This document shows positions 14,629-17,346 of a stretch of 39,754 bases of DNA, one piece after another. Under the pieces are notes generated by a model. The model was not told the origin of the DNA, ran no database searches, and saw only the letters and a list, made by a program, of their open reading frames with translations. Position 1 is the stretch's first letter; each line of letters begins with the position of its first letter. The translations under genes and the position numbers were made by a program. Source of the DNA: Kayfunavirus BDX03P1; sequence record OZ035818.1, one strand, 5' to 3'.

Positions 14629-14994
14629 ATGGCTAAATCTTATTACCAGAAGTATCAACAGCCAAGGGTCCACGTTCAGGTATGGACTGAAGCCAACGGC
14701 CCGGTCCCTAAAGGTTTCGTAGTGGACCATATCAACGGAGACATCCACGACAACAGGCTGGAGAATCTCAGGCTTGCGACTGTAGCTCAAAACATCCGTA
14801 ACTCTAAGAGGCGGTCGGACAATAAGTCTGGACTGAAGGGATTGTCTTGGGACAAGTCTCGCGGGTGCTTTAGAGGTACTGTTACAACAGACGGCAGAAG
14901 CCTCTCGTTCAGGTCTAAGGACTTGCTTGAGGTATGCTGCTGGCTTCACACGACACGTAAGGAGGCTCATGGTGAGTTCGGAAGAAGAGGATAG
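14629..14994 (+). CDS. HNH homing endonuclease with AP2-like domain (gp3.8 position)
   Basis: 121 aa; [31 protein letters not shown] core; [20 protein letters not shown]2-like; 3' end overlaps primase start. Confidence 0.8.
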
Positions 14995-16666
14995 CGTATT
15001 CCTATATCATGCACCCTGCCCGGACTGTGGTTCCTCTGATGCAATGGGTGTGTTCTCGGACGGACATTGCTACTGTTACGCATGTGACCCTTCAGTCGCA
15101 TGGAAGAAAGGAGACATGGAGTTTACCGAGGGATACACACCCTCAGGAGGTAGAAAGCAAGTGAGCAATCTGTTAACGTTCAGTGAGAACGCTGGACGAT
15201 ATGTCCCACTACCAGCCCGTAGTCTCAGCATGGAGATATGCAAGAAGTACAGCTACTGGGTTGGTAACATGGGTGGCAAGATGGTTCAGGTCGCTGATTA
15301 TTACGACAGGTCCGGGACCAAGGTAGGGCAGAAAGTCCGAGACGCTGAGAAGAACTTCACGGCTATAGGTAGCGTCAAGTCTGACATGCTGTTCGGCTCT
15401 CAGCTCTGGAACGGTGGCAAGAAGATAGTCATCACCGAGGGTGAGATAGATGCCCTGTCTGTGGCTCAGGTGCAGGACGGGAAGTATCCTGTGGTCTCGC
15501 TTCCGTTAGGCTCCAAGTCTGCGAAGAAAGCGATGGCTGCGAACCTTGAGTATCTCGACCAGTTCGAAGAGATAATCTTGATGTTCGACATGGATGAACC
15601 GGGTCGTCAGGCCATTGAGGATGCAGCTCCAGTCTTACCAGCAGGTAGGGTCAAGGTTGCATTCATTAACGGGTACAAAGACGCCAACGCTGCACTTCAG
15701 GCCAAGGACTTCAAGGCCATCACCGATGCAATCTGGAACGCTAAACCTTTCGTCCCTGCTGGCGTGGTATCAGCGGCAAGTCTGAAGGACCGCACACGAG
15801 AGGCAATGCTTAAAGCAGAGACTGAAGGTCTCATGTTCTCGTCATGCACAACACTCAACGCGATGACACTAGGTGCGCGAGCTGGTGAGCTTATCATGGT
15901 GACTTCTGGGTCAGGCATGGGTAAGTCTACCTTCGTCCGTCAGCTCCTCTTAGAGTGGGGCAGAGGAGGTAAGCGTGTGGGTATGGCTATGCTTGAAGAG
16001 GCTGTAGAGGAAACAGTTCAGGACCTTATGGGTCTGGACAATAACGTCCGTTTACGTCAGAGCAAGGAACTGAAGCAAGCCATCTTAGAGGATGGTCGGT
16101 TTGACGAATGGTACGACAAGCTGTTCGGAGACGATAAGTTCCACCTGTACGATTCATTCGCAGAGTCGGAGGAAGACACCTTGTTTGCCAAGTTAGCCTA
16201 CATGGTGGATGGTCTAGACTGCGACGTCATACTGCTGGACCACATCTCAATCGTTGTGTCTGGCATGGAAGATAACTCAGATGAACGTAAGACCATTGAC
16301 AGAATCATGACTCGTCTCAAGAAGTTTGCGAAGACGAAGGGCGTGGTTGTCGTTGTCATATGCCACCTGAAGAACCCAGAGAAAGGTAAATCGCATGAAG
16401 AAGGACGACCTGTTTCAATCACTGACCTACGTGGTTCTGGTGCTCTACGCCAACTATCTGATACTATCATCGCACTTGAACGTAACCAGCAAGGTGATAC
16501 TCCTAACGTTGTTCAGCTTCGTCTACTCAAGTGTCGCTTTACAGGTGATACTGGAGTGGCTGGGCACCTTGAGTACAACAAAACGACAGGGTGGCTTGAA
16601 CCGATTAGCTTCACTGGCAGCAGCGGAGAAGAGGATAGCGGCTCGTGGGAAAACAACGACTTCTAG
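14969..16666 (+). CDS. DNA primase/helicase (T7 gp4-like)
   Basis: Zn-ribbon CPDCGSS...CYCYAC, Walker A GSGMGKST, and C-terminal acidic tail; start 14969 after AAGGAGG RBS (ORF-track frame 14927-16666). Confidence 0.95.
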
Positions 16667-16708
16667 TCGGGACATCGCTGACTATAAGAATTTTACGGAG
16701 GACCGTTA

Positions 16709-16873
16709 GTGTTAAAGAAACTTAAAGCCCGCTACCACAGGTTCATGTACAAATGGTGGAGCGATGAAGCAACCTGCCTGTCCAACATTCTGGGAGACCA
16801 GCGGTTCAACTCTGAGGCATGGAAGAAAGCTAACCGGAAGTTCATGTATCACTTCTTGCGTACAGACTACTAA
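16709..16873 (+). CDS. small hypothetical protein (GTG start)
   Basis: 54 codons from GTG with GGAGGA RBS; weak. Confidence 0.3.
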   Translation: MLKKLKARYHRFMYKWWSDEATCLSNILGDQRFNSEAWKKANRKFMYHFLRTDY

Positions 16874-16891
16874 GCTATCACTGTAGGATAG
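16869..16891 (+). promoter_or_regulatory. phage RNAP promoter (variant CACTGTAGG)
   Basis: ctaagctatcactgtaggatag. Confidence 0.55.
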
Positions 16892-16931
16892 ACTCAAGGT
16901 CATTCACTTCGAGTGGCCTTTATGATTAGAC
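16888..16931 (+). promoter_or_regulatory. conserved hairpin, probable RNase III site (R4.7 position)
   Basis: atagactcaaggtcattcacttcgagtggcctttatgattagac; inner stem CACT/AGTG differs from other copies while outer arms are conserved. Confidence 0.45.
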
Positions 16932-16944
16932 TATAGGAGACATT

Positions 16945-17346
16945 ATGATTGACTGTATTGAGTGGACCGGGTGCCGAGATAAGTTCGGCTATGGCATGCG
17001 TAGGGTCAATGGGAAAGTCCGTAGGCTACATCTCATAGCGTATGAGGAAGCTAATGGTCCAATACCAAAGGGACTGGTTGTCCGTCATAAGTGTGACAAC
17101 CCGTCATGTTATAACCCTGATCACCTAGAGCTTGGGACACGAGCTGATAACGTTAAGGACCTGGATGTCCGTGGACGTACAGCAAAGGGTGTAAAAGTGG
17201 GATGCGCCAAGTTGACACCTGAAATTGTAGCCGAGGCTAAGAGATTGTACGCTTCTGGTGAATGGACTCACCGCTCTCTGGGAGAGAAATACGGCGTAGG
17301 GCATAGGACAATAGCCCGAGCGATTGGAGGTGCTACATGGATTTAA
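16945..17346 (+). CDS. HNH homing endonuclease (HNH_3-type with C-terminal HTH)
   Basis: 133 aa; CxxC...HKCDNPSCYNPDHLELGTRADN; C-terminal helix-turn-helix-like segment; sits immediately before DNA polymerase. Confidence 0.85.
   Translation: MIDCIEWTGCRDKFGYGMRRVNGKVRRLHLIAYEEANGPIPKGLVVRHKCDNPSCYNPDHLELGTRADNVKDLDVRGRTAKGVKVGCAKLTPEIVAEAKRLYASGEWTHRSLGEKYGVGHRTIARAIGGATWI

Follow-up and report, generated by a model that had tools for sequence, protein, structure and literature searches.

Homing endonuclease genes (HEGs) that stand outside introns are exemplified by the seg and mob genes of the T-even phages, stand-alone open reading frames (ORFs) that lie between or overlap essential genes, occur sporadically, have co-converted flanks and are tied in expression to their neighbours through overlaps; for the T4 seg and mob genes, intronless homing has been described (PMC2988022). 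Here we analyse the 39,754-nt sequence of Kayfunavirus BDX03P1 (record OZ035818.1, hereafter the window). It is a whole genome, circularly permuted, from a K1F-like member of the genus Kayfunavirus (Autographiviridae), and we focus on two of its genes, HNH-A and HNH-B. Both are very probably free-standing HEGs, of two different His-Me-finger families, placed at the 5′ ends of the essential replication genes 4 (primase/helicase) and 5 (DNA polymerase).

The closest described relatives of the two genes are those of T7, which carries, in 39.9 kb, three HNH_3 genes (2.8, 3.8 and 7.7) and the PD-(D/E)XK endonuclease gene 5.3; genes 3.8, 5.3 and 7.7 can be deleted seamlessly (PMC12153263). The product of T7 gene 3.8 (NP_041974, annotated as an HNH endonuclease) is 121 amino acids long, and its gene is located between a class II promoter with its leader and gene 4A, which it overlaps by 26 nt, with the 4A ATG in His-Gly codons and its own stop in the Asp-Ser codons of gp4A. 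Orthologs are found in phiA1122, KP32-like phages, gh-1, Tarrare, SH5 and EPr2; the type is common in Teseptimavirus and Przondovirus-like phages, but rare in Kayfunavirus (5 GenBank genomes). A more distant point of reference is I-HmuI (PDB 1U3E) from the Bacillus phage SPO1, a nicking homing endonuclease of 174 amino acids with N-terminal DNA-binding strands, intron-encoded in the DNA polymerase gene. T3 gene 5.3/F-TslI reportedly provides a further precedent for intronless homing, in work by Bonocora and Shub from 2009.

Two families of HNH endonuclease

HNH-A scores 65.8 bits (E = 2.7e-18) against Pfam HNH_3 (PF13392, curated gathering cutoff 24.8 bits) and falls in PHROG 4578, 'HNH endonuclease' (E = 6e-53). 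It has the length and the slot of T7 gp3.8, and by an alignment with 55% identity over 119 of its 121 residues (E = 4e-50) it is a homolog of that protein. A profile of 38 HNH-A homologs matches I-HmuI at E = 2.9e-7; D33-H34, N46 and N55, which are invariant in the 38 homologs, align to D74-H75, N87 and N96 of I-HmuI, which we take to be the catalytic histidine (general base) and the metal-ligand Asp and Asn residues. The beta-beta-alpha-metal fold of the His-Me finger endonucleases was recognized as well.

Pfam AP2 (PF00847, cutoff 33.3 bits) gave no match at E ≤ 10 with HNH-A, whether the whole protein or its isolated C-terminal half was searched. HNH-A therefore lies below any Pfam AP2 score, unlike the bacterial and phage HNH-AP2 endonucleases that combine PF13392 and PF00847; HNH-C, a third HNH gene of the window, reaches only 19.3 bits. 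The structural model of HNH-A contains a three-stranded antiparallel sheet packed on one long helix, as in solved AP2 domains, and distant homologs with both PF13392 and PF00847 align with HNH-A end to end. On this fold and profile evidence, HNH-A is predicted to be an I-HmuI-type HNH enzyme with an AP2-fold DNA-binding domain in place of the helix-turn-helix (HTH) of I-HmuI.

HNH-B scores 61.2 bits (E = 7.3e-17) against HNH_3 and belongs to PHROGs 59 and 6254, both 'HNH endonuclease'. Its residues H48, N69 and H60, together with the ligands C4, H29, C50 and C55, are invariant in 40 homologs. The protein is 49% identical to T7 gp7.7 over the full length (132 amino acids), HTH tail included, and 38% identical to T7 gp2.8, and shares with them the N-terminus MxDCIEWTG, the core RHKCDNPxCxNPxHL and the C-terminal HTH. 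By these alignments HNH-B is a homolog of gp7.7/gp2.8 (HNH plus C-terminal HTH), and phage CR44b annotates its own copy as '7.7B predicted homing endonuclease'. A relationship with T7 gp5.3 was also considered and was rejected, because there is no similarity and gp5.3 is a PD-(D/E)XK protein.

HNH-B lies between genes 4.3 and 5, whereas gp7.7 is encoded between 7.3 and 8, and gp2.8 between 2.5 and 3, so that the slot is shared with neither T7 gene. It should be noted that in T7-like genomes the gp7.7-type family is found before genes 3, 5, 8 and 16, and position is therefore not really a defining feature for it; in IMG/VR the family is represented by 387 stretches, on contigs of many sizes. 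This promiscuity in site distinguishes it from the gp3.8 type. In a protein-level search, 184 phage records proved to carry a gp3.8-type gene, each genome having a single one, and among the 40 of these records that were listed, most annotated rows had the match under both an HNH or homing endonuclease feature and a primase/helicase feature. The HNH-A-type gene is directly 5′ of gene 4 in L012-L014, EPr2, SH5, 216Ecol046PP and Pkp-1; in the three closest IMG/VR relatives its position is the same.

The original prediction, made from the letters of the window and a list of its ORFs, had described HNH-A as an HNH-AP2 endonuclease overlapping the primase start and HNH-B as an HNH_3/HTH endonuclease overlapping the polymerase start. 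Both ORFs exist on the + strand (Table 1), Pfam and PHROG matches agree that they encode HNH endonucleases, the two accessory domains are as claimed (for HNH-A by fold and profile evidence), and the overlaps amount to 26 and 10 nt. Loss of the HNH catalytic residues, which had been named as the refuting observation, is not the case: the residues are kept, and are invariant in homologs. That the two genes bracket the primase/helicase gene is loosely right, although about 280 nt, holding a gp4.3 homolog and a phage promoter, separate the end of gene 4 from HNH-B. The suggestion that the two types have different target sites is very likely correct, considering that they differ in family, DNA-binding domain and insertion site. 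What had been missed is the identity of the two genes as homologs of T7 gp3.8 and gp7.7. The active intron-less homing that had been claimed is inferred from comparative data, as is a specific nuclease activity of the two proteins.

Table 1. Features of the HNH loci in the window (positions are those of the whole 39,754-nt stretch; RBS, ribosome-binding site; aa, amino acids)
Feature	Position	Strand	Description
HNH-A	14629-14994	+	121 aa; free-standing HNH endonuclease gene of the T7 gp3.8 type; aa 14-55, HNH_3; ~aa 66-119, predicted AP2-fold domain
HNH-B	16945-17346	+	133 aa; free-standing HNH endonuclease gene of the T7 gp7.7/gp2.8 type; aa 27-70, HNH_3 with zinc ligands (Cys/His); ~aa 89-128, HTH
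HNH-C	847-1230	+	HNH_3 E = 4.6e-18, 65.0 bits; between Rz-like gene 18.5 and terminase gene 19
Phage RNA polymerase promoter CTATCACCTTAGGGA	14562-14576	+	Consensus match; promoter of HNH-A and gene 4; counterpart of T7 phi3.8 / K1F phi4
Native gene 4A translation start GATTAAGGAGTGACCAATG, now HNH-A start	14617-14631	+	AAGGAG, 6 nt, ATG
Replacement RBS and ATG for gene 4A, inside HNH-A 3′ end	14959-14971	+	AAGGAGG at 14959-14965; codons R-K-E-A-H-G
Gene 4A primase/helicase	14969-16666	+	Pfam Helic-prim_T7_N, Toprim, DnaB_C; alignments
Mosaic hypervariable tract, primase zinc-ribbon codons 1-39	14969-15085	+	From mismatch bins; adjoins the HEG site; sharp right edge at ~15085
Phage RNA polymerase promoter CTATCACTGTAGGAT	16875-16889	+	Upstream of HNH-B/gene 5; arises from a 12-nt indel
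Start of HNH-B; in this backbone variant, the native translation start of gene 5	16935-16953	+	AGGAG, 5 nt, ATG ATT GAC
Replacement RBS and ATG for gene 5, inside HNH-B 3′ end	17326-17339	+	GGAGG at 17326-17330; ATG in ACA-TGG (Thr-Trp); HNH-B stop TAA at 17344-17346
Gene 5 DNA polymerase	17337-19505	+	Pfam DNA_pol_A; uninterrupted, no intron; ATG at 17337 gives the 10-nt overlap with HNH-B

Capture of the translation starts of the downstream genes

HNH-A and HNH-B are stand-alone ORFs, outside any intron or intein, and genes 4 and 5 are uninterrupted, with only their first codons overlapped. All three HNH cassettes of the window start on the essential gene's own ribosome-binding site (RBS) and ATG; their 3′ ends in turn supply that gene with a substitute RBS and ATG and with new first codons. 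This arrangement differs from that of the cited T4 HEGs, which overlap the upstream ORF (PMC2988022), whereas the genes of the window capture the initiation site of the downstream essential gene and bring a substitute for it.

At gene 4, the sequence GATTAAGGAGTGACCAATG is identical in the HEG-free phages K1F, Bas105 and CR44b, where its ATG opens gene 4A (MSYDDQDDESVFLYH…), and in the window and EPr2, where the same ATG opens the HEG. The new gene 4A ATG falls in CAT-GG (His-Gly) of the conserved HGEF motif of HNH-A, while the HNH-A stop TAG (14992-14994) falls in GAT-AGC (Asp-Ser) of the conserved DSVFLYH of gp4A; the first eight codons of gene 4A in the window, MVSSEEED, replace MSYDDQDDE of the HEG-free alleles. 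The start chosen by the ORF lister, TTG 14927, was rejected in favour of ATG 14969 on the basis of the RBS, homolog annotation and alignment, and it is from this ATG that the 26-nt overlap follows. In 216Ecol046PP, Pkp-1 and L012, CAC replaces CAT at the embedded start and the ATG is lost, so that gene 4A must initiate at the next GTG and the overlap constrains the two frames differently according to the allele. The promoter upstream of HNH-A is conserved in relatives both with and without the HEG; CR44b annotates a promoter there, and in T7 phi3.8 is located upstream of gene 3.8 with a homologous leader (…TCCCTTTGTTCGCATT…).

Two further observations concern this site in other phages. In 216Ecol046PP (3408-3600), an extra 60-amino-acid ORF opens on a copy of the native gene 4 RBS and ATG, and a second copy opens the HNH-A allele; this nested insertion at the same start-codon site suggests that the site is an insertion hotspot. 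In SH5 (3505-3583), ARAGORN calls a tRNA-Ser(TGA) directly upstream of the HNH-A allele, at the place that the phi4 promoter and leader occupy in other genomes. T7-like phages do not usually carry tRNA genes, and the examined stretch of the SH5 record has no such annotation.

At gene 5, the sequence of L012, HEG-free at this site, reads …TAGGAGACATT ATG ATT GAC TTA… and opens gene 5 (MIDLQNIWGSD), and that of HEG-free K1F reads …GGAGGATTAACC ATG TTT GAC CTT… and likewise opens gene 5 (MFDLKDIWGSD). In the window, the shared TAGGAGACATT ATG ATT GAC continues with TGT ATT GAG TGG (MIDCIEWTG). The HNH-B N-terminus is M-I-D-C-I-E-W in the allele of the window and Bas105, and M-F-D-C-I-E-W in the allele of EPr2 and CR44b. 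Because each matches its own backbone, each allele uses the RBS, ATG and first three gene 5 codons of that backbone. These two alleles, 74% identical at the DNA level, fill the slot before gene 5 in different backbones, and both end with …GGAGG…ACATGGAyTTAAG, which restarts gene 5 as MDLSNVYGSD. The first ~9 codons of gene 5 are diverged (MDLSNVYGS in the window, MIDLQNIWGS or MFDLKDIWGS in HEG-free genomes), and HEG-free genomes show 9-11 mismatches to the window in 17347-17376 and the backbone level beyond.

The promoter upstream of HNH-B is present in the window, in Bas105 and in L012, and is absent, through the 12-nt indel, in K1F, EPr2 and CR44b. The possibility that this promoter and the variant RBS are cargo of the HNH-B cassette was rejected, because L012, without the HEG, has the identical upstream sequence. 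In K1F, the annotation of gene 5 is a join of two pieces and exceeds gene 5 of the window by about 600 nt (K1F locus 3335 onward); the SH5 paper (PMC4925675) mentions for K1F gene 5 a putative group I intron that carries a homing endonuclease.

Lateral movement and competing explanations

A 4.8-kb query around the HNH-A/HNH-B region matched 508 GenBank phage records, nearly all of them Kayfunavirus, the best with 93-96% identity. Among these records, HNH-A DNA was found in only four other phages (EPr2, 97%; SH5, 92%; 216Ecol046PP, 84%; Pkp-1, 77%), and a remnant of 53 nt is present in LS2; the allele itself is 97% identical to those of EPr2 and SH5. HNH-B is present at full length in 11 records, of which Bas105 is 97% identical and the others about 74%. 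Insert-free alleles of each site, at exactly the same junction, are present in most close relatives, as the original prediction had expected an alignment to reveal. The genes are thus polymorphic for presence and absence at one site among close relatives, as free-standing HEGs are; SH5, for example, carries an HNH-A-type gene, while its sister phages SH4 and Dev2 do not (PMC4925675). Combinations of HNH-A, HNH-B and HNH-C vary between near-identical backbones, and among the records examined all three occur together only in the window.

Synonymous divergence (dS) was compared between the HEGs and the neighbouring core genes. Between the window and SH5, dS is 0.35 for HNH-A and 0.17 for the first 39 codons of gene 4A, against 0.85 for the gene 4 body and 0.94 for gene 5. 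The pattern is the opposite with 216Ecol046PP (1.04 and 1.11 against 0.165 and 0.30, in the same order) and with Pkp-1 (1.46 and 1.44 against 0.21 and 0.29). For all three phages, therefore, dS in the zinc-ribbon tract at the start of gene 4A tracks HNH-A and not the gene 4 body, and in every comparison the exchanged tract, judged by sliding identity and mismatch bins, ends on the right at about 15085. For HNH-B, the comparison with EPr2 gave dS of 2.5 for the HEG and 0.26 for gene 5. Judged by synonymous divergence, the histories of HNH-A and HNH-B conflict with those of the flanking core genes, as homing predicts. The tract and the dS discordance together are evidence of lateral movement with a co-converted flank, with the reservation that the linkage of the flank to the HEG is imperfect.

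A homing cycle consistent with these data can be proposed. When a HEG-bearing phage and a HEG-free relative infect the same cell, the enzyme would nick or cut the empty allele, HNH-A within or close to the 5′ end of gene 4 and HNH-B within or close to that of gene 5. Recombinational repair from the HEG-bearing genome would then copy in the cassette and a short adjoining stretch, which for HNH-A extends about 115 nt into gene 4 and for HNH-B takes in about 25 nt of gene 5. The occupied allele would be immune, its target site being split and the adjacent codons recoded. Expression of the HEGs would ride on class II promoters and on the native translation starts of genes 4 and 5, and a HEG would be removable only by precise in-frame deletion, because the translation start of the essential gene lies inside it. 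As for the target regions, our candidates are guesses from the alignments, namely the substitution cluster within ~25 nt of the gene 5 start and the gene 4 zinc-ribbon tract ending at ~15085.

Some points weigh against this interpretation. Neither cleavage assays nor phage crosses with proteins of the gp3.8 or gp7.7 type were found in a literature search. In some genera (the T7 group and KP32-like Klebsiella phages) the gp3.8-type gene is close to fixation, which could also reflect vertical retention or a benefit to the host. The HEG alleles are very old in comparison with the backbones (dS above 1), and long persistence combined with backbone recombination fits this equally well. Finally, the linkage of zinc-ribbon alleles to the presence of the HEG is not strict: they are shuffled among HEG-positive and HEG-negative genomes, that of Pkp-1 resembling Bas105 and that of CR44b resembling the window. 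A reading of 'immune' and 'sensitive' target alleles from this tract was for this reason rejected.

The first alternative is that the genes are ancestral, vertically inherited accessory genes, as in T7, which have been lost many times in Kayfunavirus and are not currently mobile. The presence of a gp3.8-type gene in the identical slot in T7 and in T7-like phages of Yersinia, Klebsiella and Pseudomonas would fit such a history, as would the deep divergence of the HEG alleles (dS 1.0-2.5) and the loss event visible in LS2. In that phage (~3535-3760), a decayed 5′ fragment of HNH-A, unannotated in the record, lies beside a duplicated promoter, leader and RBS, and the N-terminus of gene 4A, MAVVVEEEDSVF, still has the HEG-type codons GAAGAAGAGGATAGC, so that the locus looks like a HEG-loss allele. 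Inheritance with loss does not account, however, for the comparisons with SH5 and L012, in which the HEG and ~115 nt of flank are far younger (dS 0.17-0.35) than the surrounding genome (0.85-0.94) and recent lateral transfer of just that tract is required, nor for the opposite pattern in 216Ecol046PP and Pkp-1, which has the same boundary, nor for the independent assortment of the three HEGs among near-identical backbones. The discordance already argues against it as the sole explanation, and we consider it improbable.

Slightly less probable still is that the proteins have been domesticated, and that their placement beside genes 4, 5 and 19 reflects a phage function rather than selfish insertion; possible roles are those of an accessory nuclease in replication or recombination, a regulator of genes 4 and 5 acting through the AP2 or HTH domain, a packaging helper (HNH-C) or a weapon against co-infecting relatives. 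The ratio of nonsynonymous to synonymous divergence (dN/dS) is 0.05-0.18 for HNH-A and HNH-B, calculated on the whole non-overlapping ORF, which means that the proteins are maintained by selection; such strong purifying selection, and the near-fixation of gp3.8 in some genera, would be expected of domesticated genes. In addition, some cos phages use terminase-adjacent HNH proteins as packaging cofactors (cited in PMC8861465), HEG-bearing genomes dominated the large plaques of Hafnia phage Ca (PMC8861465), and intron endonucleases such as I-TevI double as autorepressors (PMC2988022). Nevertheless, most Kayfunaviruses lack each of the HEGs, T7 without 3.8 and 7.7 is viable (PMC12153263), and the variety of unrelated genes (3, 5, 8 and 16) preceded by gp7.7-type genes fits insertion opportunism and not a dedicated partner. 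Any competitive advantage gained through marker exclusion, with HEG-free co-infecting phages shut out, would follow from homing and be compatible with it, and would not be an alternative to it.

That the ORFs are inactive relics, persisting only as carriers of the translation start of an essential gene, is most improbable: the cassette design does make imprecise deletion lethal, and the internal ATG has been lost and a GTG is used in the alleles of 216Ecol046PP, Pkp-1 and L012, but the low dN/dS and the invariant catalytic residues indicate selection on the protein itself, beyond the last 30 nt, and the sole decayed copy seen is that of LS2.

Homing of free-standing HEGs thus remains the preferred interpretation. 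An extension of it, which we offer tentatively and think rather unlikely to hold, is that start-codon capture in all three cassettes is an adaptive device against loss and for immunity, and not an accident of insertion, and that repeated HNH-A cuts near 15085 diversify the primase zinc-ribbon, its template-recognition module, in this genus. If so, capture would tie the translation of the essential gene to the HEG, destroy or recode the target and permit only precise in-frame deletions, as in LS2.

In EPr2, SH5, CR44b and Bas105 such genes already carry annotations as HNH or homing endonucleases, and they represent a recognized kind of mobile element; what interest is left comes from the uniform start-codon-capture design and from the natural allelic series. 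For annotation, the two ORFs are to be named as homologs of T7 gp3.8 and gp7.7 and regarded as dispensable mobile endonuclease genes, with ATG 14969 as the start of gene 4A. For phage engineering and therapy, they would be safe sites for deletion or for a payload only if the native translation starts of genes 4 and 5 are rebuilt. Kayfunavirus moreover offers an unusually clean natural series for a T7-type HEG, in which some sites are empty, one site holds two diverged alleles, one insertion is nested and one copy is decayed, and with it a testable guess at the cut positions; this allelic series would make the first biochemical characterization of gp3.8/gp7.7-type HEGs straightforward.

A third cassette and the genome context

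A third HNH gene had also been counted in the original prediction, and HNH-C bears this out. Its C-terminal tail is AP2-like but weak, the score remaining below the 33.3-bit cutoff. The ATG of HNH-C overlaps the Rz stop (TAATG), and a GGAGG with ATG 1205 restarts terminase gene 19, giving a 26-nt overlap and 15 non-homologous codons; in Vec13, which is HEG-free and was compared at this junction, gene 19 directly follows Rz. The gene is rare: a 1.5-kb query containing it was covered to at least 80% in only 6 of 666 matching records, and 24 other listed records cover 72-74% of it, most with matched spans ~355 nt shorter. This distribution, which is not that of a universal terminase partner in the phage group, led us to reject a role as an HK97 gp74-like terminase cofactor. 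A homolog of HNH-C is known as a 397-bp indel polymorphism segregating within one Kayfunavirus stock, that of Hafnia phage Ca (PMC8861465).

The claim that three such genes are a high load for a T7-like genome of this size is not supported, as T7 itself has three HNH_3 genes in addition to the PD-(D/E)XK gene, and CR44b carries at least three.

The promoter consensus of the window has 12 matches on the + strand, against 3.2 expected. A scan of 14000-17600 for sigma-70 promoters and terminators returned nothing above shuffled expectation. With respect to the canonical T7 map, the window is permuted, opening in the gene 18.5/19 region and continuing with the early genes, among them ocr (4890-5237) and RNA polymerase (6298-8979). 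The same starting point is common to several unannotated Kayfunavirus records, e.g. PQ476010 and OZ035749.

An extra ORF of 63 amino acids (14161-14352; PHROG 9565, unknown function) was noticed, flanked by the amidase gene 3.5 on one side and the gp3.7 homolog on the other. The ~190-nt segment that contains it is present in Pkp-1 (97% identity) and absent from EPr2, SH5, 216Ecol046PP and L012 (bins of 0% identity), and is another small indel polymorphism.

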